DNA of 64,000 nucleotides from Dehalococcoidia bacterium. Lineage in GTDB: Bacteria; Chloroflexota; Dehalococcoidia; GIF9; AB-539-J10. The stretch covers positions 153-64,152 of the forward strand of contig JAUWQY010000006.1 in NCBI GenBank assembly GCA_030610855.1. The letters run 5' to 3'. A model generated the notes under the pieces. That model did not search any database. It saw only the letters and a list, made by a program, of their open reading frames with translations, and was not told the origin of the DNA. Position 1 is the stretch's first letter. Each line of letters begins with the position of its first letter. The position numbers and the translations under genes are program-made. Below are positions 12 to 51,035 of this stretch, in pieces.

Positions 12-374
12 GTGAGACCAAGGTTTGCGTGGTCGGAGGTACAGGATGTCAGCGGAGTTTACTATAGCCTGCAGATATCAGCCAGTGCCAATGTCACGGA
101 CACCGGGGAATTCGTCGACCCCATCGTGAAGCTAGAGCGCCGGGTCGGGTCGAACTATACCCTTGAGAAAGCAGAAGCTCTATCGCACGGCACCTACTAC
201 TGGATTGTGCAGGCCGTGGATGGGGCGGAGAACGCGGGCAACTGGACCGCGGCCCAATCCTTCCGGGCCGGGCGCTTGCCTATGTGGGCATTCATTGTTA
301 TCATAGTCTTCGCCGTATTGGGCGCCGCCGCTGCTATTTACCTCTTCCTGGTAAGGAGAAGGATGTACCTCTAG
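12..374 (+). CDS. C-terminal fragment of a surface or membrane-anchored protein; the gene probably begins upstream of the window. It ends in a hydrophobic helix followed by RRR.
   Basis: The ORF is open from the window edge. The C-terminus is WAFIVIIVFAVLGAAAAIYLFLVRRRMYL, a transmembrane anchor plus a basic tail. It contains N-x-T/S sequons and an Ig/FN3-like YYWIVQAVD segment. Confidence 0.4.
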   Translation: MRPRFAWSEVQDVSGVYYSLQISASANVTDTGEFVDPIVKLERRVGSNYTLEKAEALSHGTYYWIVQAVDGAENAGNWTAAQSFRAGRLPMWAFIVIIVFAVLGAAAAIYLFLVRRRMYL

Positions 375-608: not shown

Positions 609-1787
609 ATGAAGCTAACAGTTATTGGACTGGGACAATGTGGAAGCCGGATTGCCGACCATTTTGCCAGGCTGAATCTCAAGGCGCGTACCCAGCGCAA
701 GGCAACCATAGCCCCCACCGTCATTGCCGTGAATACGGACCAGGCGGATTTGACCGGGCTGAGGTTTATCAAGAACGACTTCCAGCACCGGGTGCTCCTG
801 GGCTTGCGCCAGACGCTGGGACACGGGGTAGGCAAGATAAACGAGCTGGGGGCTCAATTGGCCAAGGAGGACGGTGACAAGGTGCTGGAGGCCGTGAAAG
901 CCAGTCCACAGTTTTACGAGACCCACGCCTTTCTTATCGTAGCCGGCACTGCCGGCGGCACGGGCTCGGGAGCCCTGCCCATAATATGCCGCGCCGTTAA
1001 GGAGCGATACATCAGCAAGCCGGTCTATGCCCTGGCCGTTCTGCCCTTTGAGCATGAGCAGACTACAGAGTCCAGAAGCGTATATAACACCGCTACCTGC
1101 CTGAAATCCACTTACGACATGGTGGATGCCATCTTTCTCGCGGATAACCAGAGGTACGTGAAAAAAGATGCCAGCCTCATCAGTAACATCGACACAATAA
1201 ACAGGATGATTGTCGAGCCCTTCTACGACTTGATGTGCGCCGGCGAAGTAACCAAAGCCAAACACGTGGGCGCGCGGACGATAGACGCCGGCGACATAAT
1301 CGCCAGCCTGGAAGGATGGACCACTATCGGCCTGGGCAGACATGAGCTTCCTTCGTTCCGCTTCCCCTGGGAGATAAGGAAGAGGACTTTCCGCGAAAAA
1401 GCCCTGGAGAGCTTCCGCGGGACACAGGCCCTGGACGCCACCATCTCCGACCTTTCCCTCACTTGCAGCCCCAAAGACGCCGCCAAAGCCATCTATATCA
1501 TATCTGGCCCGGGAAAAGAGCTTAACATGGACATGGTCAAGAGCGTTGCCGATTACGTTAAGGAGTTGGCAGCCAACGCCTTGATTCGAGGCGGCGATTT
1601 CCCCGGGGAAAAGCACTTTATCGACGTTACCCTGATACTATCACAGCTGTCCTTTGTGCCCAGGATAAAGGACTTCTACGAGCAAGCTACCAAGTATGCC
1701 CAGGAGCATCAGGGGCAGATAGAGGAAACTAAGAAAAGGATTGAATCCCTGGCTGAGCTGGGCAAGGACCTGCCTACGTTGGAATGA
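609..1787 (+). CDS. Tubulin/FtsZ-superfamily GTPase with tubulin/CetZ-like motifs, not FtsZ-like motifs.
   Basis: The start has a strong SD, aggaggcgaagaATG. The T1 loop is GLGQCGSRI (tubulin has GQCGNQ; FtsZ has GGGGNNA). The T4 loop is AGTAGGTGSG (tubulin GGGTGSG). IFLADNQRY resembles tubulin FMVDNEA. SNIDTINRMIVEP resembles tubulin LNVDLTEFQTNLVP (T7). The blocks AVNTDQADLTGL...HRVLLG...GHGVG..ELGAQLAKED resemble the archaeal CetZ clade as I recall it. Length is 392 aa. Confidence 0.8.
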   Translation: MKLTVIGLGQCGSRIADHFARLNLKARTQRKATIAPTVIAVNTDQADLTGLRFIKNDFQHRVLLGLRQTLGHGVGKINELGAQLAKEDGDKVLEAVKASPQFYETHAFLIVAGTAGGTGSGALPIICRAVKERYISKPVYALAVLPFEHEQTTESRSVYNTATCLKSTYDMVDAIFLADNQRYVKKDASLISNIDTINRMIVEPFYDLMCAGEVTKAKHVGARTIDAGDIIASLEGWTTIGLGRHELPSFRFPWEIRKRTFREKALESFRGTQALDATISDLSLTCSPKDAAKAIYIISGPGKELNMDMVKSVADYVKELAANALIRGGDFPGEKHFIDVTLILSQLSFVPRIKDFYEQATKYAQEHQGQIEETKKRIESLAELGKDLPTLE

Positions 1788-1789
1788 CG

Positions 1790-2355
1790 TGCGGGGTCGG
1801 AGACAAGCCCCGACCCTACAGATGAGTGCGGTGCCCCGATTCGTTGCGGTGCAGGGAGCGGGACAACAGTGTAGCCCGAGGCGTTCATAACCCCCCTTAT
1901 AATCCCCCTTTATCTTAAGGGGGGATTAAGGAGAAAACTCCCATATTCCAAGTCCCCCTGTTCAGATAAAAGCGGCAGGGACATTGGGATCCCTCTCTTT
2001 AGGCAAGAGGGGCCAGGGGAGTTATGATTCCCCCCTCTTAGCGTAAGAGGGGGCTAGGGGGAGTTACGAATGAGATTCTTCGCCCCGACGGTCGGGACTC
2101 AGAATGACAGGGGTGGTAGTGCGAGGCTCTAGCCTCGTGAAGGGGAGAGGGCACGACCCTGAAGGGTCGCACTACAGTATTGGGTGCACCGGCGCAGCCC
2201 GAGTCATTTTGTAGTTGCTCCGATTTCATCGGAGCACGGTTGGGCGGCTATTCCCCCTGTCGTTGCGAGCCCCGACTTGTCGGGACGCAGCAATCTCGGT
2301 CGGGTAGGAGATTGCCGCGCTCTGCATTCGCTCCGCTCGCAATGACGGGCGGCAC
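1790..2355. repeat. Hairpin-dense non-coding region. It contains several GC-stem/AT-loop palindromes and at least four copies of the dispersed nested-hairpin repeats.
   Basis: Palindromes: gggtcggagacaagccccgaccc (1797-1821); taatccccc..ggggggatta (~1905-1935); ccctctctttaggcaagaggg (~1988-2008); cccctcttagcgtaagagggg (~2030-2052). Subtype A repeat at 2072-2110. cgaccctgaagggtcg at ~2166-2181. tgtagttgctccgatttcatcggagc at 2203-2236. Subtype B at 2260-2297 and a degenerate inverted B copy at 2310-2346. Confidence 0.6.
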
Positions 2356-2359
2356 CTGT

Positions 2360-3757
2360 CTAGCTCTCTCTGAGCCGGCCTTTTGCCTCCCTGGGACCAA
2401 GACCTTTGGCAGCCTGGACCACCAGAGCCAGACTCACGAGGAAATCGTCATGTCCCTCTTGAGGGTCAACATAGAAGTTAATCGTCTGGTTGGGGCGATA
2501 TTGCGCCCTCGCTTTTTCCAACTCGAACATGGTTTCCCTATACTCGCCGGAGCCGTCCTGCCTGTAGAGTTTAAGCCTACCGGAGTTTATGAAGGACAAC
2601 AGCTCAAAGCCCATGTCCGATTTGCTCTTCGAGGTAATGACAAATGGGATAACCCGGCTTCCCAGTTCCTGCCTGAGAAAGCTGGCGACAGGCTGGCCGA
2701 TGCCCGTAGCGTCGACTACTATCCTGTGGCAGTTCCAGACATCGCGCAGAATGCCCGTCATCTGGCCATAGAGCTGACTATGGGGCGTTCCCGTCCAGCG
2801 GTATTGTTCCACGACCTTCAGCACCGGCTGTGAAGGACTGGCAGCGGCGACCTCAGCGATGGTGATTACCGTCGAGTCGTGCCCCCACCCCCGGCGGGTG
2901 CCAGTAGCCTCCTCTGCCGTCAGCTCCGGCTCGTGTTCGCCTGCCAAATCCACGCCGGCAACGTATGTCCTCTTTCCCCCGGCGGCCTGTCCTGAGCCTG
3001 CCGAAGGATGCGACTGCCTCTGGTGTTCTCCAAGCACGAGGGCTATTTGCTGGCGTGACAGGAAACCTCCACCGCGTGTGATAGGCAATAAGGCATATTG
3101 CGTCCGGAACAGGGGATGCTCTTCACCCAATCTTTGCCGCTCAGCCTCCACAAACCTCACATAATCAGGATTGTAGCGCCCTACCTCCTGCCAGTCATAT
3201 CTGAAGTGGCGCTTTATGCCATCCTTCCCTTCCAGTTCCAGATTGGCCTGCTTCACCTCTTCCAGCAAGCTGCTACTGTCCCACGTAGTGCCGTAAAGAA
3301 TCGTGGTCACGTTGGTGGCGGAACCCATGGGGCGGAATTCCCTGCTGTACTTCTCTTTGCTGACATCTTGCGCTTCATCGATCTCAAGGATTATGTCGGC
3401 GGTATGTCCCACCACCGAAGAGGAGCCATCGGCCGAGAGAAAGATGGCTCTGGCGTTGCCGAGCTGTAGAATATAGCCCATCTGGAGACGATAGATGCCG
3501 TCAAAACCAAAATCAACGAGCCTCTCTTTCAGCCTTTCTATAGATATAACGGTCTGAGGCCTGAAGGTCGGGGAGCATTTTACGAGACTGCCTCCCCCGG
3601 CCATATAGAGCGTTAACAGCAGGACTTCCAGATGCGCCGAAAGCTCATTCTTGCCTCCCTGGCGGGCAATCTCCGCGGAAAAGGTCAGTCCCATTCCCTT
3701 CTGGATGGAGTCCATAGCCGCACGGGCGACTTGCAGCTGGTAAGGTCGTAGTTTCAT
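2360..3757 (-). CDS. Phage terminase large subunit (N-terminal ATPase plus C-terminal RNaseH-like nuclease). It is solitary: no other phage structural genes lie in the window.
   Basis: Walker-A-like ARQGGKNELSA; Walker B ILEIDEAQDV; C-terminal nuclease block with AGVDLAGEHE and VVDATGIGQP. Length 465 aa. Flanked on both sides by hairpin repeats. Confidence 0.75.
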   Translation of the reverse strand: MKLRPYQLQVARAAMDSIQKGMGLTFSAEIARQGGKNELSAHLEVLLLTLYMAGGGSLVKCSPTFRPQTVISIERLKERLVDFGFDGIYRLQMGYILQLGNARAIFLSADGSSSVVGHTADIILEIDEAQDVSKEKYSREFRPMGSATNVTTILYGTTWDSSSLLEEVKQANLELEGKDGIKRHFRYDWQEVGRYNPDYVRFVEAERQRLGEEHPLFRTQYALLPITRGGGFLSRQQIALVLGEHQRQSHPSAGSGQAAGGKRTYVAGVDLAGEHEPELTAEEATGTRRGWGHDSTVITIAEVAAASPSQPVLKVVEQYRWTGTPHSQLYGQMTGILRDVWNCHRIVVDATGIGQPVASFLRQELGSRVIPFVITSKSKSDMGFELLSFINSGRLKLYRQDGSGEYRETMFELEKARAQYRPNQTINFYVDPQEGHDDFLVSLALVVQAAKGLGPREAKGRLRES

Positions 3758-3762
3758 AGCTG
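3731..3762 (-). repeat. Copy 1 of a 32-bp direct repeat spanning the terminase start codon (ttgcagctggtaaggtcgtagtttcatagctg).
   Basis: 31 of 33 positions are identical to the copy at 3849-3880. This copy encodes MKLRPYQLQ, the genuine terminase start. Confidence 0.7.
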
Positions 3763-3848
3763 GTTATCGGCGATCAGCCTCAAAATCGTAAAGGAAGGGC
3801 TTCCTTCACGCCTCGAACGGTGGGTTATTGGCCATCAGGTCCAATACT

Positions 3849-3880
3849 TGCAGTTGGTCAGGTCGTAGTTTCATAGCTCT
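3849..3880 (-). repeat. Copy 2 of the 32-bp direct repeat: a duplicated terminase 5' end with a stronger SD. It opens a 22-codon ORF, MKLRPDQLQVLDLMANNPPFEA*.
   Basis: The minus strand reads aggaggagtacgagagctATGaaactacgacctgaccaactgcaag. It is in frame with the terminase ATG 117 nt downstream, but separated from it by TGA and TAA stops. Confidence 0.65.
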
Positions 3881-3891
3881 CGTACTCCTCC

Positions 3892-3932
3892 TTGTCATTC
3901 TGAGCTCCGACAAGTCGGAGCGAAGAATCTCA
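3892..3932 (+). repeat. Nested-hairpin dispersed repeat, subtype A, forward orientation (tgtcattctgag-ctccgacaagtcggag-cgaagaatctc).
   Basis: An outer stem attct/agaat surrounds the inner hairpin ccgacaagtcgg. It is the inverted partner of the copy at 4278-4326. Confidence 0.7.
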
Positions 3933-3969
3933 CCCGCTCGGAGCAAATGCCACGAAGGGCGAAGATGTC

Positions 3970-4260
3970 CTACTCCTCATACCATCTCTCACCTAAGTCT
4001 TTCCATTCTGGATTTGCCGCCTCGATTAAGGCAATCTTCTTCTTTCGCAGCCATCCCTTGATTTGCTTTTCCCTCTGGATCGCAGCACGTACATCACTAG
4101 TAATCTCATAATAGACCAGCCTGGCGATATTGTATTTTCGAGTAAATCCCTCAATTAGCTTATTTCTGTGTTCATATACACGCCGGACTAGATCATCGGT
4201 TACACCTGTGTAAAGCGTTCTAGAGTTATTGGTCATGATATAAACGTAGTACTGCTTCAT
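3970..4260 (-). CDS. GIY-YIG nuclease superfamily small protein (COG2827/YhbQ-like).
   Basis: YVYIMTNNSRTLYTGVTDDLVRRVYEH..IEGFTRKYNIARLVYYE is the classic GIY-YIG core (GIY...YIG, Arg, Glu). Length 96 aa. Bracketed by inverted copies of the subtype-A repeat. Confidence 0.85.
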   Translation of the reverse strand: MKQYYVYIMTNNSRTLYTGVTDDLVRRVYEHRNKLIEGFTRKYNIARLVYYEITSDVRAAIQREKQIKGWLRKKKIALIEAANPEWKDLGERWYEE

Positions 4261-4277
4261 TACCTTAGCTTTTTCTT

Positions 4278-4326
4278 AGATTCTTCCGTCGCCCCGATTC
4301 ATCGGGGCTCCCTCAGAATGACAAAG
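4278..4326 (-). repeat. Nested-hairpin dispersed repeat, subtype A, reverse orientation (agattcttc-cgtcgccccgattcatcggggc-tccctcagaatgacaaag).
   Basis: Its reverse complement is ctttgtcattctgaggga-gccccgatgaatcggggc-gacggaagaatct, matching the 3892-3932 copy in inverted orientation. Confidence 0.7.
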
Positions 4327-4429
4327 AAGTAAAGGGCTCAGAATCGCACCTTATCTTGCCACAAAATAGAACACCTCTAATAGGACCTGTGTTCTTTTCA
4401 TGGCTGGTCGTGCCCTTGTGGATAGGAGC

Positions 4430-4912
4430 CTATTTACTGGCTATCTTCATGCCCACCCCGACCCCCAGGGGCAGGGCAACCTCGGTCAGGACCTTCTGGA
4501 CGGCTTCTTTCAGGGATTTCTTCTGCTCTCTGGTAATCTGGTATCGTGTTCTCACCAGCCGGGCTATGATATTGGCTGCCTCGAAGTGCTGGTCGATCCG
4601 CTCCGGCTGTTCTTCCACGAGCTGCCTGAGCTTCAGCCTGAGAAGAGCAATCTCCTCGTCAATTCCCTCGACGCAAGAGGCCTCCTCCAGCTCAACCCGT
4701 TCCGCCTCATCCAGAGCCCGGCTATAGAAACCCCGTGGACTACCTTTCCGCTTGCTTCTCCCTTGTGTTGTCATAACGGTTCTTGGGTCGGCACGAATTT
4801 GCAGGGTTTCTGACATGTGATCTATGGGCAGCCGGCAGGGTGGCGGGACTTCTCTCATACCGGTTTTTGCCGTATTGCACCCGCGCCTTGACCAGACCGT
4901 AGACAAGGACAT
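4430..4912 (-). CDS. Hypothetical protein. It may be a frameshifted gene, or two overlapping small genes, spanning ~4430-4990.
   Basis: The 3' two-thirds (4430-~4740) is protein-like: FYSRALDEAERVELEEASCVEGIDEEIALLRLKLRQLVEEQ...KEAVQKVLTEVALPLG. Upstream of ~4740 a different frame (the ORF 4740-5174 frame, up to ~4990) looks more coding-like: NPFVYLEHLCYDGVVKLLAAALQKQDYELAAHVLVYGLVKARVQYGKN. Confidence 0.35.
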   Translation of the reverse strand: MSLSTVWSRRGCNTAKTGMREVPPPCRLPIDHMSETLQIRADPRTVMTTQGRSKRKGSPRGFYSRALDEAERVELEEASCVEGIDEEIALLRLKLRQLVEEQPERIDQHFEAANIIARLVRTRYQITREQKKSLKEAVQKVLTEVALPLGVGVGMKIASK

Positions 4913-5014: not shown

Positions 5015-6049
5015 TCAGAGGACGGCATGCAGGAGCGATGCTATCACCCAACCGAGGGCACCGCAGACCGGGAAGGTCAGAATCCAGGCCAACACGATAT
5101 TCTTGGTTACACCCCACCTCACTGCAGAGAGGCGCTTCGTGGCACCCACCCCCATTACAGCCGCCGTGGCACAATGAGTGCTGCTGACAGGAATCCCCAG
5201 GCGTGAGGATATCTCAATGATGGTTGCCGCTGAGAAATCAGTGGCAAAACCGTGAATCGGTTGCAGGGCGGTAATCTTGAACCCTACTGTCCTGATCACC
5301 CGCCAGCCACCGACGGCAGTGCCTAAACTAATGGACAACGAGGAGATGACTATGACCCACCACAAACCACGACCGATCGCAATCTCGTCCCACACGGCGG
5401 CCGCCTGCCCGAATTGGCCAGTCCGCTGATAGAAAATCACCAGTGCCATGGCAATGATGCCGATGGGCATCTGTCCATTGTTCTTGCCCAGACTGTAAGC
5501 CAGAAAAGCGGTCGTAAGCCATTGCAGACGGCTGAAGATGACCCTTATCCGGGCGGGAGCGTTTCGCCGAAACGTCCAGAGCAGGGCAATTACCAGGGCA
5601 AAGCCACCGACGAAACCGAGGGCAGGGGTAGCAATCACCGACGCCAGCACCGGTCGCATGACATGCCACTGCACCGCATCTGTGCCCCCCGCCACCGCCA
5701 TGCCGGCTCCTGCGAGCCCGGCGACCAGGCTGTGAGTCGAGCTTACCGGCAGACCACGCCGAGTAGCTATGGCAACCCAGACTATGACTGCGGCTAAACT
5801 GGCGAACAACGTCTCATATAGAATTGCCTCAGGGAGCAGAATTCCCTTGCCGATGGTTTTGGCAACCTCGAGGCCGGTAGCGGCACCGGCGAAGGTAAAA
5901 AAGGCAGCCAGTATTATGGCGCTTGCAGGCGAAAGAGCACGAGAGCCAATGGAAGCAGCGACGCTATTGGCAGAATCATTGAAACCGTTGACCACTCCAA
6001 AGCCGATGGCTGCCCCAACTACCAGAACCAGCAGAGCGAGTTCAGGCAT
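5015..6049 (-). CDS. pit: Inorganic phosphate transporter, PiT family.
   Basis: Has the GFNDSANSVAASIG and GIPVSSTH signature repeats of PHO4/PiT. It is multi-pass hydrophobic. It overlaps the start of the downstream phoU-like gene by 8 bp. Confidence 0.9.
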   Translation of the reverse strand: MPELALLVLVVGAAIGFGVVNGFNDSANSVAASIGSRALSPASAIILAAFFTFAGAATGLEVAKTIGKGILLPEAILYETLFASLAAVIVWVAIATRRGLPVSSTHSLVAGLAGAGMAVAGGTDAVQWHVMRPVLASVIATPALGFVGGFALVIALLWTFRRNAPARIRVIFSRLQWLTTAFLAYSLGKNNGQMPIGIIAMALVIFYQRTGQFGQAAAVWDEIAIGRGLWWVIVISSLSISLGTAVGGWRVIRTVGFKITALQPIHGFATDFSAATIIEISSRLGIPVSSTHCATAAVMGVGATKRLSAVRWGVTKNIVLAWILTFPVCGALGWVIASLLHAVL

Positions 6050-8274: not shown

Positions 8275-8799
8275 TCACTTGAATCTTCTTACCTGAAAGC
8301 GATAGAGACTGACCGGCTCGCCGGTTGATATTCTGGCCTTGAGCCGGCAGATGACAATTTGCTCTTCGACGCTATCGACCCCCTCCAGGTCGGGCAGCAG
8401 GAGTCCCTTTTTCAAACCGTTTTCCACGATGACGCCATATTTCCTGTGATCAAGCTGGCTGATATCCGTGACCGGGGCAGGCTCAGTAAGAATATCGACG
8501 CCGTATTCCAGGTCCTCAAGCTCAGACACAGCTACCGGGGGGAAGCGGGGGTCTCTGGTAGATGAGCTGATTGCATTGGCGATTATCTCGTCGGCCACAT
8601 TCTCCCTCATCGGCTCGAAGGTACCGATGCATCCTCTCAACTCGCCGTGCTTATGCAGGGAAACAAAAACTCCCGCCCGCTCTCTCATCTCCGGAGTCAA
8701 CTCGCGCTGCTCGATGATTTCGCCCTTCCGCACATAGCTTTCCACAGCCTCTTTGGCCAGTTTCACAACAGGATGAAGTCCCTCTTCTGTCATACGCAC
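8275..8799 (-). CDS. AMMECR1 domain protein (AmmeMemoRadiSam system component).
   Basis: Has the RGCIGTFEP motif. It is 174 aa and adjacent to the AMMECR1-associated radical SAM enzyme. Confidence 0.85.
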
Positions 8800-8930
8800 C
8801 TCGCATCCCTCACCCTTTTCCTTTCCCTGGACGGGAGAGCATCGAGGCGAGGGTTGACACTTACACTACAGTCTATCTTGCCACTTCCAAGACTCTTGCT
8901 GCATCTCAGAACCCCCCTGTTCGCGTCCAA

Positions 8931-9038
8931 CCTGTAGTTGCTCCGATGCAATCGGGGCTGCCCAATGGATTGGGCAAATACGATCCTGACCTTTCTCCAT
9001 CGTTCCCGTATAATCTGTAGTTGCCTGATTTATCAGGC
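8931..9038. repeat. Two tgtagttgc-[hairpin] repeats (third subtype) between AMMECR1 and the radical SAM gene.
   Basis: ctgtagttgc-tccgatgcaatcgg-ggctgcccaatggattgggc at 8931-8977, and ctgtagttgc-ctgatttatcagg at 9015-9038. The same head, tgtagttgctccgat, appears at 2203-2236. Confidence 0.6.
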
Positions 9039-10055
9039 GATTCGTGGCATCCGGAAGTTAAGCCCCGCCCCGCAGAACTTGCACTGCGAGCCGTCCAGCC
9101 CCACAACACGGGTATCATAGCCAATGCGACGGACGACCGTCTTCCCACAAGAATAGCACACAGTGTCCTCATACTCGTGCCCCGGCACGTTGCCCAGATA
9201 GACAAATCTCAGCCCTGCCTCTTTCCCGATTCCATACGCCCTTTCCAACGTGGACACCGGCGTAGCCGACAGATGAGTGAACTCATGCAGAGGATGGAAG
9301 CGAGTTACATGCCAGGGAGTTAACTCGCCCAGTGCATCTCGAATCCAGCCGGCAATACCTCGAAGTTGCTCCTCATCGTCATTCATCCCGGGAACGATGT
9401 TGGTAACCACCTCGACATGCATATCCCATTTCTCTCTTGCCCGCCTGGCTACCTCCAGAATACCCCGCCACTGGGAGATTCCGGCCAACTTGCGATAGAA
9501 TCCGTCACTGAAGCCCTTGACATCAACCCTCCATGCGTCAAGCCAGGGTCCTATCGTATCGAGAGCTTCAGGCGTGGCATAGCCATTGGTCACATAGACG
9601 GTGTATAGATTGCTTTCCTTGGCCAGCCTGGCTGAATCCAGGGTGTATTCAAACGAGATAGCGGGCTCGTTATAGGTCCAGGCAATGCCCTGGCAATCGT
9701 ATCTCCTGGCTAGCTCTATCTCTCTCTCCGGGAGCAATTGCTGAGAATGGGGCGGCATATCAGCACAGGAGATCTCCCAGTTCTGGCATCCTTTACAGCG
9801 GAAATTACATCCCCAACTGCCCAAAGAGAAGGCATAAGTGCCGGGAAAGAAATGAAACAGAGGTTTCTTCTCAATGTGGTCTGCCGCCATCGAGGATACC
9901 TCGGCATAGTTCATGGCATACAGAGTGCCATCCCGATTGATGCGCATACGGCAGACGCCAAGCTTACCGGGATTAACAAGGCACCTCCACTGGCAAACAT
10001 GGCACCTCACCCTGCCCCCGGGGAGTGTCTCATAGAGCAGAGCCTCCCTTTCCAT
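9033..10055 (-). CDS. AmmeMemoRadiSam system radical SAM enzyme.
   Basis: The N-terminal Cys cluster is CHVCQWRC...C, the SAM cluster is CNFRCKGCQNW, and the C-terminal cluster is CYSCG...CKFCG. This architecture is typical of the AMMECR1-associated radical SAM family (TIGR04337-like). Confidence 0.85.
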   Translation of the reverse strand: MEREALLYETLPGGRVRCHVCQWRCLVNPGKLGVCRMRINRDGTLYAMNYAEVSSMAADHIEKKPLFHFFPGTYAFSLGSWGCNFRCKGCQNWEISCADMPPHSQQLLPEREIELARRYDCQGIAWTYNEPAISFEYTLDSARLAKESNLYTVYVTNGYATPEALDTIGPWLDAWRVDVKGFSDGFYRKLAGISQWRGILEVARRAREKWDMHVEVVTNIVPGMNDDEEQLRGIAGWIRDALGELTPWHVTRFHPLHEFTHLSATPVSTLERAYGIGKEAGLRFVYLGNVPGHEYEDTVCYSCGKTVVRRIGYDTRVVGLDGSQCKFCGAGLNFRMPRIA

Positions 10056-10226: not shown

Positions 10227-11126
10227 TTATCTGCTGATAAACGTGTTTATAATCCCTTCAAAAGGTGATAGGCTCCCATGAAGTTGGTCGATTTCCTCTG
10301 GACTCAATACTGTGAGGGCGTTAGCTATCTCGGCAAACGCTCCACTAGAAAGAAGCTCCCCTGCTTTATTCTGGTCTTCTGATGTGGTTACGACGAGGAA
10401 GAGGAGAGGATGGCCCATAGTATGGTATCCGTGCAGCAGTTTGGCTAGTGCACTCTCTAGAGTGCCCTTGTGTTGAACTTCGAAGACATGACTTACTCCC
10501 TGTACCCGTTGAGAGCTTTTCCACACGACATCATAAATGTAGAAGCCTTTGCGGTACTCTCCTTTAGCATATCTTCCTAGAATCTTACCGATTTCCTTAA
10601 TTTTTCTCTGAATCTCTTCATGTGTGTAGGTTTGCTCGTCTCTCACTACCGTTGGTTTTCCAACTCCCTTATACCCCAGCTCCGCTGCCAGCTCTCTGTA
10701 AGAAAGAGTCTCCGCCTTGTTCCAGAGTGCCTCGTTGAGTTCACCTCTTCGCCCCTTTGTTACTAGTAAACACAGCTTTGAAATGCCAATCTTAATCAAA
10801 CGGTCTTTTGGGGGCGCTATGGGAGTGGTCGACAATCGGTAAATATTCATGAGGCGTGTCGCCCAAGAGTAGGAGTTGTTGAAGGGTAAGCTGTATTGCA
10901 CATATTCCATGAAGTTCCCGTAACCGAGAACCCGCCAATAACGCCCTTCAGAGCATTCGGTTAGTAGTCTTCCGATTTGTAGAAAATCGTGCATCACTTC
11001 CGCAACAAGTCGGATTGTCTCTTCACGGTTCCGACGCGCTTGCTCACGGATGTCTGCTTGCGGAACTATCTGCATAGACTGAAGCCTACAGGTATACCTT
11101 GTATTGCTCAATGTAAAGTATACCAC
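10227..11126 (-). CDS. Hypothetical protein with a C-terminal PD-(D/E)xK nuclease-fold motif, in a low-GC islet. Probable start is the internal Met at 11078.
   Basis: GFYIYDVVW...VFEVQHKG supplies Asp and E-x-K on adjacent predicted strands, followed by LLFLVVTTSED. The N-terminal half is helical and HTH-like. Local GC is ~47%, against ~57% in the neighbours. It is a single gene inserted between the radical SAM gene and an ABC substrate-binding-protein gene. Confidence 0.5.
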   Translation of the reverse strand: MVYFTLSNTRYTCRLQSMQIVPQADIREQARRNREETIRLVAEVMHDFLQIGRLLTECSEGRYWRVLGYGNFMEYVQYSLPFNNSYSWATRLMNIYRLSTTPIAPPKDRLIKIGISKLCLLVTKGRRGELNEALWNKAETLSYRELAAELGYKGVGKPTVVRDEQTYTHEEIQRKIKEIGKILGRYAKGEYRKGFYIYDVVWKSSQRVQGVSHVFEVQHKGTLESALAKLLHGYHTMGHPLLFLVVTTSEDQNKAGELLSSGAFAEIANALTVLSPEEIDQLHGSLSPFEGIINTFISR

Positions 11127-22037: not shown

Positions 22038-24014
22038 ATGATACCTCTAGTCGTCAATACACTCGACCCTATGGCCAAAGTCAGGATTCTGACTACCAAA
22101 GATCACTCCACAAAGGCCCTCAAGACTCTGCACACAGCCGGCGTGCTGCATGTTAAACAAAGTGAAGAGCTAAAGCCTGTGGGCAGAGAAGCTCTTGAAC
22201 ATGAAAGAAAGCAAATCAACGGGCTACTAACAGACATTGCCAATGTGCTGGCTTACATACCGAAGGGAGAGATTGTGTCCCTGGAGGAGGGTGTTGAGGT
22301 CATATACACCAGGCCCCTGGACGAGATTGACAGCGAAGTAAGATCATTATGCACCAAGCTCAGTAATATGCATCGAAGAGCTGCCAAACTCGAAGAGGAC
22401 GTTAAGGAGCTAAGAGAACTAAGTAAGTATCTTGGCTCTCTGGGACAGCAGGCTGACATCAGACTGTCTGATCTGGATTTTTCGGGAGGCTATCTTTTCT
22501 CCCGGGTCTTCCTTCTTCCAAATGAGGCATATCACAATCTGTGCCATACCGTGAAGGACTACCTGCTTGAGAGCATTGCTGTTGCGCTAGAAAATGAAAC
22601 CGCATTCTACGTAATTGCCAGGGTTGAAGACAAGGAGACTATAGAATCTGCGATTAGGAGCAGCGGTGGCAGAATTCTTCAGATACCGAAAGAAGATCTA
22701 ACTGTGCGACAATTCGTTGAGGTAGTCGTCGATAAGGTCCATGGCTTTGAAGAGGAAATGGCAAAGCTCTACGGCGAGATTGAAGGCAAGACCAGGGAGA
22801 ACTTAGGACAGCTCGTCCTTTTCAGGGAGGCACTATCAGCTGAAGCTGAAAGACTGGCAGTCTTAGAAAAGGCCTCTGAGGCAGACTATGTCACACTAAT
22901 CGAGGGCTGGATTCCTGAGAGCAATGTTGAAGGCACAATTGCCGAGCTGAAGGAGAACATAGGCCTTGTGTACATTGACACGAGGAAGCCGGAACAGGCA
23001 GAAGAACCGCCCACCAGGATGAAGAATGCGGCTGCAGTCAAACCGTTCGAGGTCATCGTCAACATGTTCGGTACACCGAAGTACAGAGAATGGGATCCCA
23101 CGCCGATAATAGCCTATTCATTTGCCATTTTCTTCGGTCTTATGCTTTGTGATGTTGCATATGCTATCGGCATTATACTGGCTGCCAGATTTCTAATACG
23201 CAGATTTGTCGATGACCCATATTCTGAAGGCTACAGGCTGTTCCAGAGAGTGCTCTATATCAGCGGGGCCGTTGCCCTTGTACTCGGCTTCCTGGCCGGG
23301 AATTACCTCGGAGATATATACTCGTTCTTTGGAGTTGACAGCGCGGCGCTCTTGGAGCCTGTTAGAGACATGCTTACCGATCCGATTTCTTTCATAGTCC
23401 TTTCCGTTGGGCTGGGCCTTGTTCATGTGAACACGGCTCATCTTCTGGCGCTGATCGTCGGGGTCAGGAAAAAGGACAAAGGCATAGTGATCAACAAGGT
23501 TGCACTCTTTGCACTCCAGCTCTGCGGTATCCCCATAATTCTAAGGTGGTTGTTTGAGATATCTTTGCCGGTGGCTCCAGGCATGTACGACATCTTCATG
23601 TATGTCGTAGCTGCCAGTGTGGTAGCCATTATAGTGTCCTCTTTCATGCAGCAGGGCGGTCTGGGGGCTGTCTTCTGGATCTTTGACCTGACTGGTCTGC
23701 TCGGCGATGTGATGTCATATGCCAGGCTGGCCGGAGTCGGATTAGCCACATTCTACCTTGCGTCGAGCTTCAACATGCTGGCACGGTTGTTCTCCGGAAT
23801 GATACCGGGCGTGGTCGGAGTCATCATTGGGACTATCATAGCAGTTGTAGTCCTGATCGTCGGGCATCTTATCAACCTGGCTCTGAGCGGTATCGGTTGC
23901 TTCGTGCACTCCCTGAGACTGTGTTTCGTCGAGTTCCTATCCAAGTTTTACGAAGGCGGTGGTGAGGAGTATAGTCCATTCCGGTTGAAGACGCGACCCG
24001 TATTCGTCAAATGA
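22038..24014 (+). CDS. atpI: V/A-type ATP synthase subunit I (the a subunit: stator plus proton channel).
   Basis: 658 aa. A hydrophilic N-terminal half is followed by a C-terminal multi-TM domain. Confidence 0.85.
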   Translation: MIPLVVNTLDPMAKVRILTTKDHSTKALKTLHTAGVLHVKQSEELKPVGREALEHERKQINGLLTDIANVLAYIPKGEIVSLEEGVEVIYTRPLDEIDSEVRSLCTKLSNMHRRAAKLEEDVKELRELSKYLGSLGQQADIRLSDLDFSGGYLFSRVFLLPNEAYHNLCHTVKDYLLESIAVALENETAFYVIARVEDKETIESAIRSSGGRILQIPKEDLTVRQFVEVVVDKVHGFEEEMAKLYGEIEGKTRENLGQLVLFREALSAEAERLAVLEKASEADYVTLIEGWIPESNVEGTIAELKENIGLVYIDTRKPEQAEEPPTRMKNAAAVKPFEVIVNMFGTPKYREWDPTPIIAYSFAIFFGLMLCDVAYAIGIILAARFLIRRFVDDPYSEGYRLFQRVLYISGAVALVLGFLAGNYLGDIYSFFGVDSAALLEPVRDMLTDPISFIVLSVGLGLVHVNTAHLLALIVGVRKKDKGIVINKVALFALQLCGIPIILRWLFEISLPVAPGMYDIFMYVVAASVVAIIVSSFMQQGGLGAVFWIFDLTGLLGDVMSYARLAGVGLATFYLASSFNMLARLFSGMIPGVVGVIIGTIIAVVVLIVGHLINLALSGIGCFVHSLRLCFVEFLSKFYEGGGEEYSPFRLKTRPVFVK

Positions 24015-24041
24015 AAGACTTAAAACAGGAGGTATAAAGAG

Positions 24042-24509
24042 ATGATAGATCCAAGCGCGTTAGCTAGTATCGGCGGTGCAGTGGCGTTGATTGCCGGTCT
24101 AATCGGTTCATCTATAGGTATTGCCACCGCTGCATCAGGCGGATTGGCTACATTGTCCGAGGATCCGCGGCAGTTCAGGAATGTGTTAATACTGGCATCA
24201 TTGCCAATGACACAGTCCTTTTATGGGCTAATAGTGCTCATACTAGTAATAACAGGCGTACTTCCCAATATGCCTGCCGAGGGCAGCGCCGGTCTTGTTG
24301 CTCTTGTTGTCAGCCTCATAGCGGCTTTTGCCTTTGGTTTCTCGGCAGTATATCAAGGTATGGTTTGTGCCTCAGGTATCGCAATGTTACCCAAGACCGG
24401 AGGGAAAATCCTGACCAGCTCTATGATGCTGGCAGTATTTGTCGAGCTGATAGCTGTTCTTGCCCTGGTCTTCACGATAATGGCGTTCACCCTGCTTGGC
24501 CTTATGTAG
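24042..24509 (+). CDS. atpK: V/A-type ATP synthase subunit K (proteolipid, double hairpin).
   Basis: 155 aa with four TM helices, rich in G/A/I/L. Confidence 0.85.
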   Translation: MIDPSALASIGGAVALIAGLIGSSIGIATAASGGLATLSEDPRQFRNVLILASLPMTQSFYGLIVLILVITGVLPNMPAEGSAGLVALVVSLIAAFAFGFSAVYQGMVCASGIAMLPKTGGKILTSSMMLAVFVELIAVLALVFTIMAFTLLGLM

Positions 24510-24518
24510 AGGTGTTTT

Positions 24519-25106
24519 ATGGGAATGGATAAGATCAGGGACGCCATCATCTCCAAGGTCCGGATGGAGGCCGAAGACATAACACGTGAGGCTAAGGAGA
24601 AGGCACAGGAGGAGATAGAGAAGGCCAGGAGACAACGGGAAGCTAGGTTCGACGAAGAGAGAGGCAGAATACTGACAGACGTGGAAGCGGAGGCTGCCAG
24701 AACTCTAGCTCAAGCCTCTATCAAGGCGCGTCAGAAGCTATCGAGTACGAAAGCTGACATAATCGCTGAGATAGTTGACAGGGCCCGCAGGGAATTGTCC
24801 CGAGTTTCAAGCGATGACAGCCATATTCTAAACTTGGTCAGAGAAGCCATGGAGGCACTCGCTGCCGCCAAAGGCAAAATCTACGTTTCACCTAAAGACG
24901 TAGGCACTGTAAAGAAACTCCTTGAAGCACACAGGGACTTGTCTGACAGGATAGTGGAGGTCAGGGAATCGAATTGCCTCGGTGGAGTCATAGCTGAGGA
25001 CATCGAGGGAAAGCTCAGGATAGATAATACTTACGAAACAAGGCTCGAGATGCTCCTGCCAAGGCTATTGCCGGAGATAAGCAAGAAACTCTTTGAATCT
25101 CCGTAA
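24519..25106 (+). CDS. atpE: V/A-type ATP synthase subunit E.
   Basis: 195 aa with an N-terminal charged helix (EAEDITREAKEKAQEEIEKARRQREARFDEE). Its position in the operon is consistent with subunit E. Confidence 0.75.
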   Translation: MGMDKIRDAIISKVRMEAEDITREAKEKAQEEIEKARRQREARFDEERGRILTDVEAEAARTLAQASIKARQKLSSTKADIIAEIVDRARRELSRVSSDDSHILNLVREAMEALAAAKGKIYVSPKDVGTVKKLLEAHRDLSDRIVEVRESNCLGGVIAEDIEGKLRIDNTYETRLEMLLPRLLPEISKKLFESP

Positions 25107-25115
25107 AGGAATACC

Positions 25116-26150
25116 GTGCCTAGTGTAAAGTACGCATTCATATCGGCTTACCTGAAGGGTCAAGAGGCCAGGCTGCTGACTTCCGAGCATATAGATAGCT
25201 TGCAAGCAGCGCCCAGCATACAGGACGCGCTGGCAACCATAAGGGAGACCGATGTAGGGAGCTATCTGGAGGAATTGCCCGTCAGAACTTTTGATGATCT
25301 AGACGAATGTTTGTGGAGATATCTTGCCCAGCGCTTTGCGTACATAGAGTGGTTCAAGCTCGTGCCCCGGGATGTGCTGGGGATATTGAGGGCATATATT
25401 GCTAAGTATGATGTCTTCAATATCAAAGCGACCTTAGAGAGCATTTCTGCTGCCAAGAAAGCCAAGACGATACCGCTGGGGATAATCCACAATAATGGAT
25501 TGCTGGATGAGCTCTCCAGCGCCCAGAATATAGATGACATCACCCGGGTACTTGTCAAGTGCAAACTGGGAGACTATGTACCTGCCCTGGAACGACACAA
25601 AACAGATGAAGCCGCGAAGTCGAAGCTCCTCGTTCAGGCCAGGTTAGATGGTGAGTATTACGGAAATCTCCTGAATATGGCAAGGTCTGTAAAAGACGGC
25701 CCTATCCTTCTTCAGGCCTTCGGTCTAATCATAGATCTGGCAAACCTTCAAATCGCCTGGAGAGCCGTGATTGCAGGCATAGAACTCCACGTTGCCGAGT
25801 TAACCATTGCTGGCGGATATGAGATTACGGACAGATCTATCAAGGAGTTACTATCTCTTAAGATGGCCGAGATGCCTGCCAGGCTGGAGAATACCCAGTA
25901 CTCTGATGTGGTTAAAGAAATGCTGGTTAGCCATGACAAAACCAAAAGCATCACGGTTGTAGACGAAATCATCGATAAGCACAAGTTCAGGATGCTCAAG
26001 GAAATGCTGGCGCCAAGAGTGCTATCCCCGCTGGCGATGGTCTGGTACCTAATCCTCAAAGAGATTGAAATACGAAACCTGCGGCTCGTTCTGAAAGCAA
26101 TTGTCGATGGTGTTCCGGCGCAGGAAGTGAAGGGCTATTTGGTGCTGTGA
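25116..26150 (+). CDS. atpC: V/A-type ATP synthase subunit C (the d subunit).
   Basis: 344-aa helical protein at the canonical position between E and F. Confidence 0.75.
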   Translation: MPSVKYAFISAYLKGQEARLLTSEHIDSLQAAPSIQDALATIRETDVGSYLEELPVRTFDDLDECLWRYLAQRFAYIEWFKLVPRDVLGILRAYIAKYDVFNIKATLESISAAKKAKTIPLGIIHNNGLLDELSSAQNIDDITRVLVKCKLGDYVPALERHKTDEAAKSKLLVQARLDGEYYGNLLNMARSVKDGPILLQAFGLIIDLANLQIAWRAVIAGIELHVAELTIAGGYEITDRSIKELLSLKMAEMPARLENTQYSDVVKEMLVSHDKTKSITVVDEIIDKHKFRMLKEMLAPRVLSPLAMVWYLILKEIEIRNLRLVLKAIVDGVPAQEVKGYLVL

Positions 26151-26151
26151 C

Positions 26152-26505
26152 ATGATGCCCATCAAACACCTGGATATAGTTGTTGTAGGAGACGAAGAGC
26201 TAGTCAACGCGCTCAGATTGGCCGGCAGCAGCAGATATTACATGATAAAGGGCGATCACGATGTCCGTGAAAACGTAAGGAAGGCTCTAGCCGAGTTGAT
26301 AGCCGAGCCTGATGTTGGCATAGTAGTGATGCTGGAAGACTATGCACAGTATGTTGAAGACCTGTTAACCCGGGTCAGAAAAGGAAGAGCGATCACTCCT
26401 GTGATCATTGAAGTTCCATCCAAGTTCGGTACGAAGTACCCGGATGTCAGGGAATATTACAGAGCGTCTGTTAGAGCATCTATAGGGTTTGAAGTGGAGA
26501 TTTGA
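26152..26505 (+). CDS. atpF: V/A-type ATP synthase subunit F.
   Basis: 117 aa, with IVVVGDEELVNALRLAGS, typical of the F subunit. Confidence 0.75.
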   Translation: MMPIKHLDIVVVGDEELVNALRLAGSSRYYMIKGDHDVRENVRKALAELIAEPDVGIVVMLEDYAQYVEDLLTRVRKGRAITPVIIEVPSKFGTKYPDVREYYRASVRASIGFEVEI

Positions 26506-26534
26506 GACTATAGAAAGAGCAGGAGGTTGAAGAT

Positions 26535-28286
26535 ATGGGCAAAATATGGAGAGTTTCAGGTCCTCTAGTTATAGCCGAGGGAATGAAAGGTTCCCAGGTT
26601 TATGAAGTTGTTGAGATAGGTGAAGAAGGGCTTGTCGGGGAGATAGTAGGACTGGAAGGGGACAGAGCGGTAATTCAAGCACACGAGGATACTTTGGGAT
26701 TGAAAGTCGGTGCGGTGGTGATAGGAACGGGAAGAATCTTAAGTGCTGAGCTAGGCCCCGGACTGGTGGGCTCTATTTATGATGGGTTGCAGAAATCTTT
26801 GCTTGCCCTGAGTGAGAATACCGGCCCATTCATAAAACGAGGGGTCAAAGCTTCGCCTCTTCCTCGAGACAAGAAATGGCAATTCACACCTCAAGTCAAG
26901 GTGGGGGATGCTGTTAGCCAGGGGGATATAATAGGCATAGTTCCCGAGACCAATCTGATAGAACACAGGATAATGGTGCCAGCAGGAATCAAAGGCACAG
27001 TAAAGGAGATACGCAAAGGCGACTACACCGTCGAAGAGCCTATAGCCTGGGTGGAACATGACGGGGAAGCAAAAGAACTCACGATGATGCAGCGATGGCC
27101 CGTAAGAAAGCCCAGGCCCTATAAGCAGAGATTCGATCCTTCAGGCTTACTCACTACTGGCATGCGGATTCTGGATTACATGTTCCCTTTGGCTCTCGGG
27201 GGCAAAGCGGCGATACCCGGGGGCTTTGGTACTGGAAAAACCGTTGCCCTGCAGCAACTGGCCAGATGGGCCCGGACACATCTGAACATCTATGTTGGCT
27301 GTGGTGAAAGGGGTAACGAGATGTCCGACGTGCTCTGTAGCTTCAGAGAACTCAAGGATCCCAACACAGGAAGACTACTGCAGGAGAAAGAGATCTTCAT
27401 AGCTAATACCTCCAACATGCCTGTGGTGGCCAGGGAGGCAAGCATTTTCGTCGGCATTACCATGGCCGAGTATTTCCGGGATATGGGTTACGATGTTTTG
27501 CTGGTTGCCGATTCAACTTCGAGATGGGCTGAAGCCATGAGGGAGATGAGTGGCAGGCTTGAGGAAATGCCCGGAGAGGAGGGCTTTCCCTCATATATGG
27601 GCTCTCGGCTTTCTTCTTTCTACGAAAGAGCGGGGATGGTTGAATGCCTGGGTAATCCTGGAAGAAGGGGATCAGTAACAGTGGCCGGTGCTGTGAGTCC
27701 CCCCGGAGCCGATTTCAGCGAACCCGTAACCCAGAACACACTGAGAATAATAGACGCACTGTATGCCTTAGAAGTCTCGCTGGCAAACAAGAGACATTTC
27801 CCGGCCATAAGCTGGCTCACCAGCTATAGCCTTTATGTAGACGCGGTCAGAGACTGGTGGAATGAGTATGATGCAGGGTGGGAGAATACCAGGGCCAGTG
27901 CCTTGAGACTATTGCAGCAGGAGGCTGAACTTGAGGAGATCGTCAGACTCGTGGGTCCCGAAGCTCTGCCTGAAGGAGACAAACTGCTGCTTCTTGTCTC
28001 CAGGATGATACGCGAGGACTTTCTCCAGCAGAGCGCTTATCATGAAGTTGATACCTACTGCGTGCCGACAAAAGCCGGCCTCATGCTCAAAACTATCATG
28101 AAGTTCTATGAGCTAGCCCAGGAGATGCTAAGTGCAGGGTCAGGTATTGAGAGCATCCGCTCATCACCGATGGTGTACAGAATATCCAGGATGAAGGATA
28201 TACCCAACGAGGTCGCCGAACAGAGAATCAAGGAATTGTGGGCGGAGATGGAACAAGGCCTGGTAACCGGCAAACGGGTTCCCTGA
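26535..28286 (+). CDS. atpA: V/A-type ATP synthase catalytic subunit A.
   Basis: P-loop GGFGTGKTV, the non-homologous insert region, and [12 protein letters not shown] motifs. Length 583 aa. Confidence 0.95.
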
Positions 28287-28302
28287 GCAAAGGAGGACTC
28301 CA

Positions 28303-29700: not shown

Positions 29701-29717
29701 AATCGAGCGCAGGGCAA

Positions 29718-30353: not shown

Positions 30354-30357
30354 ACGA

Positions 30358-50261: not shown

Positions 50262-50370
50262 TGTTGCCCTTCACATCAATTTTAACATCGGAGCACCTGA
50301 AGGTAAAGCGGATATATTCTTGACTAGTTGCACTGTCTTTGCACTTGTGGCATAATAAGCCAGACCTTTA

Positions 50371-50392
50371 AACCAGTCCAGTGAGGCTGGTA
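50371..50392 (+). promoter_or_regulatory. PyrR-binding RNA loop (pyr attenuator binding motif) in the pyrR leader.
   Basis: ccAGUCCAGUGAGGCUgg matches the ARUCCNGNGAGGYU consensus and is closed by a ccag/cugg stem. It lies ~60 nt upstream of pyrR. Confidence 0.55.
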
Positions 50393-50423
50393 AGGGGAGA
50401 TATGCTAAAGCAACCCGCAATAG

Positions 50424-51035
<612 letters not shown>

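Follow-up and report, generated by a model that had tools for sequence, protein, structure and literature searches.

Why should a bacterial chromosome carry what looks like an intact DNA-packaging enzyme of a phage, with no phage around it? The question is raised by a stretch of 64,000 nt (in the following, the window) from a Dehalococcoidia bacterium (assembly GCA_030610855.1, contig JAUWQY010000006.1, positions 153 to 64,152), in which a gene for a terminase large subunit, TerL, lies among host genes; the contig is 64,381 nt long and breaks just past the left edge of the window. A sequence-only reading of this DNA had taken the gene to be solitary, had pointed to a duplication at its 5′ end, and had named a remnant resembling a gene transfer agent (GTA) as one of several possible explanations. 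Of these, the GTA-like option is the one best supported by the present analysis: to judge from the genes of the window and its relatives, TerL probably packages DNA for a domesticated, GTA-like element that is passed on vertically. The object first described was real but its scope had been drawn too narrowly; not the lone TerL but a broader, split element is the finding.

The large terminase subunit

The 465-aa open reading frame (ORF) with terminase ATPase and RNase H-like nuclease motifs described in the sequence-only reading is indeed encoded in the window (Table 1), and both its extent and its motifs hold up. TerL passes the cut-off of the Pfam family Terminase_6C (E 4.7e-7), as the proposed profile check was meant to establish, matches a PHROG profile of large terminases (E 5.6e-7), and aligns by tblastn with the annotated large terminases of the Bacillus phages vB_BboS-125 and BCD7 (30% identity, 96% of the length of TerL covered, E 3e-44). 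Its N-terminal domain is an ASCE ATPase, its C-terminal domain an RNase H-like nuclease with a triad of acidic catalytic residues. Across alignments with 16 and with 72 sequences, the residues of Walker A (R32, Q33, G35, K36), of Walker B (D127, E128) and of the coupling motif (Y155, G156, T157) are invariant or at least 90% conserved; the same holds for the acidic residues of the nuclease (D270, D349, D437/D438), which answers the earlier question whether the Asp triad is intact.

An AlphaFold2 model of TerL built on the 72-sequence alignment reached a pLDDT of 92.3 and a pTM of 0.88; its only uncertain part is the flexible linker between the two domains (about residues 246–293, or 250–300 in the model). 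A sequence search of the PDB with TerL returned no match, and the structural relatives were found by fold instead: the top matches in a Foldseek search of the PDB are all large terminases, with that of HK97 the best (E 1e-19), followed by those of D6E, Sf6 gp2 and T4 gp17 (probability 1.00, E 1e-19 to 1e-14). The two-domain arrangement of ASCE ATPase and RNase H-like nuclease is thus shared with HK97 (6z6d), D6E (5oe8), Sf6 gp2 and T4 gp17, while sequence identity to these enzymes is 11–17%. Because profile matches, conserved motifs, structural model and fold matches agree, the gene appears to encode a bona fide, catalytically intact-looking TerL, predicted to carry out ATP-driven packaging and DNA cleavage.

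The linker between the domains of TerL tolerates in-frame insertions of hairpin repeats, which were seen within coding regions in the TerL linkers of P0083, P0107 and P0118 and in the portal gene of L092 (5189–6622); the peptides that result include SLRAKRSNL..., HSVLDTESR...RFRGNDRE and VIASAAKQSQGIATS.

Head genes beyond a block of host genes in relatives

Queries with the cognate portal and capsid proteins found nothing in the whole 64-kb window. The earlier statement that no portal gene lies within tens of kilobases on either side is correct for the right side, where housekeeping genes alone are encoded up to about 40 kb; it has no basis on the left, where the window ends 2.36 kb past TerL, inside a gene for a surface protein with Ig-like repeats (of the TIG family). 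What lies further on was read from relatives. A scan of GTDB species representatives yielded at least 199 loci encoding a relative of TerL; the best 80 of the 199 encode proteins 59–97% identical to it and all belong to metagenome-assembled genomes of Dehalococcoidia/Chloroflexota. More than 3,500 homologues of TerL and more than 4,100 of the portal were found. Neighbouring genes were mapped by tblastn and by clustering of all ORFs in the relatives' loci.

In these relatives the genes convergent with TerL encode a CetZ-type tubulin, one or two TIG proteins of about 520 aa, and a protein of about 1150 aa; the sequences of the TIG proteins and of the ~1150-aa protein show a signal peptide and, at the C-terminus, a membrane anchor. 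The portal gene lies about 10 kb from TerL, on the side on which the window ends. The order is TerS-TerL on the forward strand (TerS being the terminase small subunit), then CetZ and the surface-protein genes on the opposite strand, and then, forward again, a gene with a helix-turn-helix (HTH) domain followed by those for portal, scaffold, major capsid protein (MCP), adaptor and a protein of about 700 aa.

This order was pieced together from loci of different extent. In L020 and L062 (TerL 80–82% identical) the fetched DNA ends in the N-terminal part of an SPP1-type portal gene, before which a small Cys-rich HTH gene is placed. L093 covers CetZ, the surface block, HTH and portal; it is taken to be the same contig as that of TerL P0041 (83% identical) because both are 16,042 nt long. 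Its counterpart from another sample, L092, continues further: a ~1165-aa gene on the opposite strand is followed by HTH, portal, scaffold, a 93-aa gene and MCP, and these by a 70-aa gene, an SU10-type adaptor and genes of 114, 70, 435, 204 and 711 aa. The MCP of the relatives is of the HK97-fold type; that of L092 matches the PHROG major head protein (E 1.8e-53), and the 435-aa product matches a virion structural PHROG. A metagenome scan anchored on the HTH gene added 80 further loci of the window clade, among them L114, a single 22-kb contig on which the 3′ end of TerL, CetZ, TIG, the 1150-aa gene, HTH, portal, scaffold, MCP, adaptor, g114, g70 and g711 were all mapped by tblastn; in L103, L110, L124 and L145 the 3′ end of TerL is linked through the host block to HTH and portal. 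In the Dehalococcoidales loci L080 and L091, TerS-TerL and two TIG genes precede HTH, portal, scaffold, MCP, adaptor and a 667-aa gene. The comparison of synteny that the sequence-only reading had suggested therefore tells against its own view of a solitary terminase: a TerS-like partner is encoded in the window, and single contigs of relatives carry, besides TerL and past the host's envelope and cytoskeleton genes, those for portal, scaffold, capsid, adaptor and the ~700-aa protein.

Pfam annotation, which covered the 10-kb flanks of both halves in relatives and 60 kb of the window, showed neither integrase nor replication or lysis genes, and no tail-tube or tape-measure gene was detected. 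In two chromosomal settings that otherwise differ, the head half ends with a gene on the opposite strand for an XRE-family HTH protein (L089, 20735–21130, and L091, 18241–18627, both minus strand); it could be a retained repressor. On the 2.28-Mb contig of P0516 a portal fragment is cut by a serine recombinase, which is not informative for the window clade. A query with the N-terminal part of the portal gave mainly fragments, of which P0391 alone was of use.

Relatives in phages

The nearest representative at 50% identity clustering, P0121 (62% identical), belongs to a contiguous module of TerL, portal, two further genes and MCP. Forty-six relatives of TerL with 53–71% identity were found in IMG/VR, and nearly all of them have TerS-TerL-(HTH)-portal-scaffold-MCP-adaptor-g70-g114 and a ~650-aa gene in uninterrupted order. 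These uncultivated Dehalococcoidia phages (L186, L203, L007, L035, L174–L219) share this module with the chromosomal loci but have it contiguous and together with either an integrase (of the tyrosine type in L186) or early genes with HNH nuclease (L203), and their TerS keeps the motif NxNAxKHGFY. From the uninterrupted module of the phages and the divided order of the chromosomes it follows that the chromosomal arrangement is, as far as gene order can tell, a phage module which was split between TerL and HTH by host genes and stripped of the rest. Variation exists among the phage-like contigs as well; some of the group of L213, L215 and L197 place TerL after tail-side genes, in a permuted order, and in L197 a Zn-ribbon ORF takes the position before TerL, where no TerS-like ORF is found.

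Selection, inheritance and integrity

TerL diverges together with its host neighbour: pairwise identities of TerL and of the adjacent CetZ correlate with r = 0.86 over 820 pairs, which are not independent of each other. Between the window and L001 (on the 323-kb contig JAUWBE010000001.1 of GCA_030601805.1, fetched with 10 kb on either side) the synonymous divergence, dS, is 0.151 for TerL and 0.148 for CetZ; in other pairs dS of TerL is up to about 1.8 times that of CetZ. Both halves are under purifying selection. The ratio of nonsynonymous to synonymous divergence (dN/dS) of TerL is 0.06–0.18 in 19 pairs, similar to that of CetZ, and the median values in the window clade are 0.125 for portal, 0.18 for MCP, 0.14 for adaptor, 0.12 for g114 and 0.21 for the 711-aa gene; the comparisons reach dS of about 0.9. 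TerL is intact in 126 of the 128 loci that could be evaluated, and the portal is of full length in 45 of 56 evaluable HTH-anchored loci, a count which includes two point-disrupted alleles (L092/L093, L161); the adaptor of L094 carries a frameshift flag. The GC content of the element equals that of the host, and the backbone of radical SAM, AMMECR1 and RarA genes, then TerS-TerL with convergent CetZ-TIG, is kept across clades in which CetZ is as little as 58% identical. Neither a neutral remnant nor a set of recent, independent integrations agrees well with selection, integrity, GC content and backbone. That the host has kept an intact phage-type TerL, and not a decaying copy, is thereby supported by both the invariant motifs and the purifying selection.

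The TerS-like partner

A small TerS-like ORF is found immediately upstream of TerL in nearly all loci, also in the window, for which the lack of any small terminase had been asserted. The copies of phage-like loci and of Dehalococcoidales start with KRGAPKGNQNARKHGFYS and match PHROGs 1889, 509, 9231 and 370, all terminase small subunits, with a best E of 2e-8; the copy of the window scores weakly (E 0.17) because this N-terminal motif is lost. The TerS-like protein has no match in Pfam, and searches of the PDB including a profile search gave nothing significant; a single-sequence AlphaFold2 model shows four helices at a pLDDT of 62, too weak for a fold search. Its dN/dS is about 0.1–0.25. The N-terminal motif NxNAx[KRT]HGFY (compared at 4700–4774 in the window) is present in 29 of 29 loci in which the portal is adjacent, versus 6 of the 52 in which CetZ/TIG is, and all six of these are from Dehalococcoidales. 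Its loss is suggestive of a functional shift in TerS; a role of the motif in DNA binding is an assumption.

Between the TerS-like gene and TerL the window has a cassette of about 440 bp (3888–4327) with a GIY-YIG nuclease ORF, bracketed by inverted copies of a hairpin repeat at 4280–4327 and 3888–3931. Some relatives only have it: L004-6, L010 and L025 carry the same cassette, L001 a remnant of it, and in L021 it precedes TerS. The GIY-YIG ORF is an inserted cassette, not a part of the packaging system. None of TerL, TerS, GIY-YIG and CetZ matched a PADLOC defence family (E up to 0.01).

How the element may work, and what else it could be

Acting as DNA-packaging ATPase and headful/cos nuclease, TerL would cooperate with the TerS-like protein encoded just upstream. 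The TerS-TerL pair would then be one half of a phage-derived particle gene set, chromosomally fixed in a large clade of Dehalococcoidia; the ancestral order TerS-TerL-(HTH)-portal would have been split by the host block of CetZ, two Ig-repeat surface proteins and the ~1150-aa surface protein, and integrase, replication and early genes would have been lost from the chromosomal element. TerL might fill with DNA the capsids that the distal half encodes, in the manner of a GTA or another domesticated particle, and we infer both that a particle forms and that it carries DNA. On genomic proxies the element would count as a GTA: its phage-derived genes are structural ones only, it is inherited vertically and it is under selection, the assignment being drawn here from the genes alone. 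As to an intact or inducible prophage, no integrase, attachment site (att), replication, regulation or lysis module was seen in the window or in the flanks of the relatives, and host genes lie inside the element.

Several observations weigh against a GTA-like element; most of them bear on one alternative or another and are given there, and three are more general. The closest relatives (L001 with 95% and L004-6 with 99% identity) are read only to the end of the surface block, accessions of cluster members did not connect portal fragments with the assembly of L001, and the window itself is without the head half; the head half is quite likely, we think, to be retained in the window genome, an estimate made because the portal is of full length in 45 of the 56 clade loci. 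In the lineage of the window, TerL has lost its Shine-Dalgarno (SD) sequence. Finally, searches of full-text literature found neither a GTA nor a conserved terminase-portal cluster described for Dehalococcoidia or Chloroflexota.

An alternative is that TerS and TerL were domesticated on their own, for a capsid-independent role in the host such as DNA translocation, cutting or defence, and that the head genes are leftovers. This would explain why, on the 737-kb contig of L018 (18651–19662), the head genes are deleted down to the C-terminal ~130–170 codons of the ~670-aa gene and TerS and TerL are still intact, why the portal is lost in 11 of the 56 evaluable loci of the window clade and TerL in hardly any, and why the head half of L089/L090 is found next to DnaJ on one side and exosortase/Fur genes on the other, TerL being absent from the 10 kb around it (L089); the loss of the phage-type N-terminal motif of TerS would fit as well. 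We nonetheless hold it to be unlikely, as portal, MCP, adaptor and ~700-aa gene have dN/dS of 0.12–0.21 and are intact in most loci, the ATPase and nuclease motifs of the terminase are the same as in the phage relatives, and the comparison with PADLOC gave no defence match.

Equally unlikely in our judgement is an element that still moves, be it an inducible temperate phage or a helper-dependent, capsid-forming satellite, integrating repeatedly at this locus. Flanking integrase, replication and early genes are missing at either half of the chromosomal type, some 10 kb of host genes lie within the element, the chromosomal backbone is constant even between clades with strongly diverged CetZ, dS of TerL is close to that of the host neighbour (its excess in some pairs notwithstanding), and there is no tRNA and no att-like repeat in the window. 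Real phage-like contigs do exist among close relatives, namely L186, L203, L007 and L035, a regulator of the XRE type comes after the head half in L089 and L091, and in trees built by neighbour joining the phage-type TerLs are interspersed, between the major clades, with chromosomal ones. The latter means that inheritance was not purely vertical or that the trees are unreliable; tree error, multiple captures or recombination with relatives that infect the host may lie behind it. The window's own TerL clade (at least 79% identity) is purely chromosomal in the same trees.

Least probable, and by our estimate very improbable, is a neutral, slowly decaying prophage remnant without present function: head-gene deletions, stops and frameshifts in some lineages (in the portal of L092/L093 a TAG in place of the conserved Lys285, identical in two samples at L092 ~6041–6043 and L093 ~10853–10855, which is either a pseudogene or a case of read-through; a portal frameshift in L161; a stop in the portal of L156, which is cut by the contig end; a stop in the MCP of L100), the invasion of the locus by hairpin repeats and the GIY-YIG cassette, and the loss of the SD of TerL would all agree with decay, but dN/dS is about 0.1 for TerL/TerS and low for the head genes up to the largest dS compared, intact ORFs were seen in almost every one of more than 120 loci, the catalytic residues are all invariant, and synonymous changes outnumber non-synonymous ones even within the lineage described in the next section.

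Returning to the GTA-like element, a bolder version can be put forward tentatively, and we would sooner bet against it than for it: a working podovirus-like GTA in many Dehalococcoidia, the first in Chloroflexota, whose halves, apart across a tubulin/S-layer-like block, would be co-regulated via a palindrome possibly bound by the Cys-rich HTH protein, with the window lineage having this operator newly placed before TerL. In a still stronger variant the envelope/cytoskeleton block would be functionally tied to release or uptake of the particle.

The duplicated 5′ end of terL

The sequence-only reading had noted that the first nine codons of TerL are duplicated upstream and that a stop-interrupted, in-frame leader ORF of 22 codons results. 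Both are correct: a direct repeat (3729–3761 versus 3846–3878) is identical in 31 of 33 nt at a spacing of 117 nt, and none of 100 shuffles of the window contained two matches to the 33-nt repeat. The proximal copy agrees with the insertion-free relative L001 at both sites at which the distal copy differs. Alignment of the window to L001 (95% aa identity) and to L002 leaves a clean 117-nt gap directly behind codon 9; the insertion thus revealed consists of 84 new nt and the distal repeat copy (Table 1). It is identical or nearly so in L004, L005 and L006, which together with the window form a near-clonal lineage of four sequences; since these three come from three other samples, an assembly artefact is excluded. 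Insertion and leader were seen in these four sequences alone, L001, L009 and all other loci being without them.

The claim that a strong SD is duplicated along with the codons did not survive. GGAGG (3887–3891) stands before the ATG of the leader only, and the ATG of TerL (3757) has no SD and an in-frame TAA at -9; the SD was not duplicated because the repeat starts just 4 nt ahead of the ATG. The insertion would accordingly have left the old SD of TerL to drive the 22-codon leader and TerL to start without one. Within the insertion-bearing lineage TerL still appears to be constrained, because the window differs from L004 and L006 by 10–17 synonymous versus 4–5 non-synonymous changes in TerL.

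The core of the insertion is a 30-nt palindrome, GAGGCGTGAAGGAAgCCCTTCCTTtACGAT. When up to 5 substitutions are allowed, the fetched loci (about 2 Mb) yield 36 copies of the form GTGAAGGAA-N4-TTCCTTCAC, all of them intergenic within this cluster: between the 1150-aa gene and HTH, HTH and portal, MCP and adaptor, g114 and g711, TIG and the 1150-aa gene, and TerL and CetZ. Often it is directly upstream of the HTH or the portal gene or of an SD-ATG (intergenic regions of L094–L173). It is absent from the host flanks fetched for the same clade (an estimated 200 kb), and its chance expectation in the window is 0. The other ~50 inserted nt found no match. An origin of the 84 nt by tandem duplication of the 3′ flank of TerL followed by deletion was considered and rejected, as only the ~30-nt palindrome is common to both, and ordinary transposition does not fit because a target duplication of 33 bp is too long. 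The event may be described as one that placed a copy of the cluster-specific palindrome before TerL and duplicated 33 nt of the target; the duplicated 5′ end would, on the distribution of the insertion, be a secondary event confined to one lineage.

The palindrome may be an operator for the HTH protein, an RNA element or a repeat that spreads locally. It is the dominant hairpin in the RNA fold of the leader region; a function as intrinsic terminator was rejected, since most copies lack a T-run and no terminator was called there, and scans with Rfam and for tRNAs gave nothing in the TerL/leader region. Is leader plus hairpin then a selected regulatory device, that is, an upstream ORF (uORF) or attenuator, or a new operator for the HTH protein of the cluster? 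The intergenic sites of the palindrome just before HTH, portal or later genes, the stability of the insertion in three other samples, the purifying selection on TerL that persists after it, and the hairpin itself speak for this. Its restriction to one near-clonal lineage, the drift already seen in the upstream repeat copy (Tyr to Asp) and a fold z-score of a modest -2.0, with no terminator-like site called, speak against it, the alternative being a neutral insertion scar, and we find a selected device doubtful. The uORF-type arrangement, which the sequence-only reading had offered, is unlikely as a conserved mechanism because the leader is absent from relatives 95–97% identical.

That TerL sits in a nest of hairpins is true in part: a modest enrichment exists, as 6 of 32 perfect hairpins of at least 7 bp lie in the first 4.5 kb, which does not make a nest.

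Comparison with known systems

With RcGTA, CcGTA, BaGTA, Dd1 and VTA the Dehalococcoidia element has in common a phage-derived set of structural and packaging genes without integration or replication functions. Known GTAs have a putative TerS without detectable DNA-binding domain, which has been proposed to cause their non-specific packaging (PMC11841831; PMC6854486). Like RcGTA-type agents, the element is chromosomal, inherited with the host and under purifying selection; its TerS, most copies of which lack a motif kept by the TerS of phages, offers a suggestive parallel to the TerS of those agents (PMC11841831, PMC6854486). It differs from them in that there is no sequence relationship, the Dehalococcoidia family being nearest to uncultivated Dehalococcoidia phages, and in its SU10-type podovirus adaptor and capsid, in belonging to the phylum Chloroflexota, and in being known from its genes.

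VSH-1 of Brachyspira hyodysenteriae, attributed to Stanton et al. 2009, is reportedly a GTA with a divided genome. There as here, genes of the particle are in blocks parted by unrelated host genes; lineage and gene content are different, and the Dehalococcoidia element is split exactly between TerL and HTH-portal, with tubulin and surface proteins in between. The capsid-forming phage-inducible chromosomal islands (cf-PICIs) are mobile and equipped with integrase and replication modules. They resemble the present case as small chromosomal elements with their own terminase, portal and capsid and few other phage functions; in contrast to them, no integrase or replication gene was found with the Dehalococcoidia element, which has host genes within it and diverges in step with the host.

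In the subsurface Dehalococcoidia are abundant, and the class includes the main organohalide-respiring bacteria. Its members are difficult to culture, and no genetic system is known for them. A host-maintained particle system across the class would, if real, be a testable route by which they exchange genes, such as those of reductive dehalogenase islands, and possibly a handle for delivering DNA; to the few cases in which phage heads are known to have been domesticated it would add an independent one from outside the proteobacteria. Phage relatives and chromosomal copies can be compared side by side with regard to loss of the TerS motif and to splitting by host genes. For annotation practice, a terminase that seems "solitary" at the end of a contig should not be taken as such.

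The neighbourhood of terL in the window

The features at the left end of the window are collected in Table 1. As the sequence-only reading had it, tubulin-like, pit and rarA genes are the neighbours of TerL, to be specified as CetZ-type tubulin, Pit/PhoU_div and RarA. The housekeeping genes to the right encode Pit, PhoU_div, RarA, AMMECR1/radical SAM, peptide-chain release factor and endonuclease V, and further an A/V-ATPase operon, acyl-CoA dehydrogenases, RecO and Trk.

Table 1. Features of the terL locus (coordinates in the window)
Feature	Position	Strand	Basis or remark
Ig-repeat (TIG) surface-protein gene, 3′ end, cut by window edge	12..374	+	clusters with TIG family of relatives
CetZ-type tubulin	609..1787	+	Pfam Tubulin and CetZ_C; first gene of host envelope/cytoskeleton block, convergent with TerL
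TerL-CetZ convergent intergenic region, several hairpin repeats	1788..2359		
TerL, large terminase subunit, 465 aa	2360..3757	-	Pfam, PHROG, alignments, AlphaFold2 model, Foldseek
Proximal 33-nt repeat copy: 4 nt, ATG and first 9 codons of real TerL	3729..3761	-	
Lineage-specific 117-bp insertion: 84 new nt (3762-3845) and distal 33-nt repeat copy (3846-3878)	3762..3878	-	
Palindrome GAGGCGTGAAGGAAGCCCTTCCTTTACGAT, 9-4-9 inverted repeat inside insertion	3785..3814	-	sole copy in 64-kb window
Leader mini-ORF, 22 codons, MKLRPDQLQVLDLMANNPPFEA*, in frame with TerL	3806-3874	-	created by insertion
Hairpin repeat at downstream end of GIY-YIG cassette	3888..3931	-	supplies SD for TerL in L001, for leader ORF in window
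GIY-YIG nuclease ORF, 96 aa	3970..4260	-	Pfam GIY-YIG E 6.7e-16; inserted cassette between TerS-like gene and TerL
TerS-like small protein, ~114 aa	4430..4774	-	conserved partner upstream of TerL; probable start 4774, open frame to 4912

CetZ is an archaeal family of tubulins. The CetZ-type tubulin is conserved in these bacteria, always beside the Ig-repeat surface proteins and the ~1150-aa surface protein (L001 11518–12696; L046–L066), and a second CetZ paralogue is encoded upstream of rarA in some clades; a literature search, judged by titles and abstracts, found no publication on CetZ in Chloroflexi. At 22038–30816 lies the A/V-type (archaeal-type) ATPase operon, which comprises genes for subunits I, c, E, C, A, B and D and has a DUF61 gene behind it. 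The pair of AMMECR1 and radical-SAM genes beside rarA (8275–10055, minus strand) is kept upstream of the terminase locus in two major clades. The sole Rfam match in the window is a PyrR binding-site leader at 50361–50473 on the plus strand, with a score of 54.1 versus a gathering threshold of 54.

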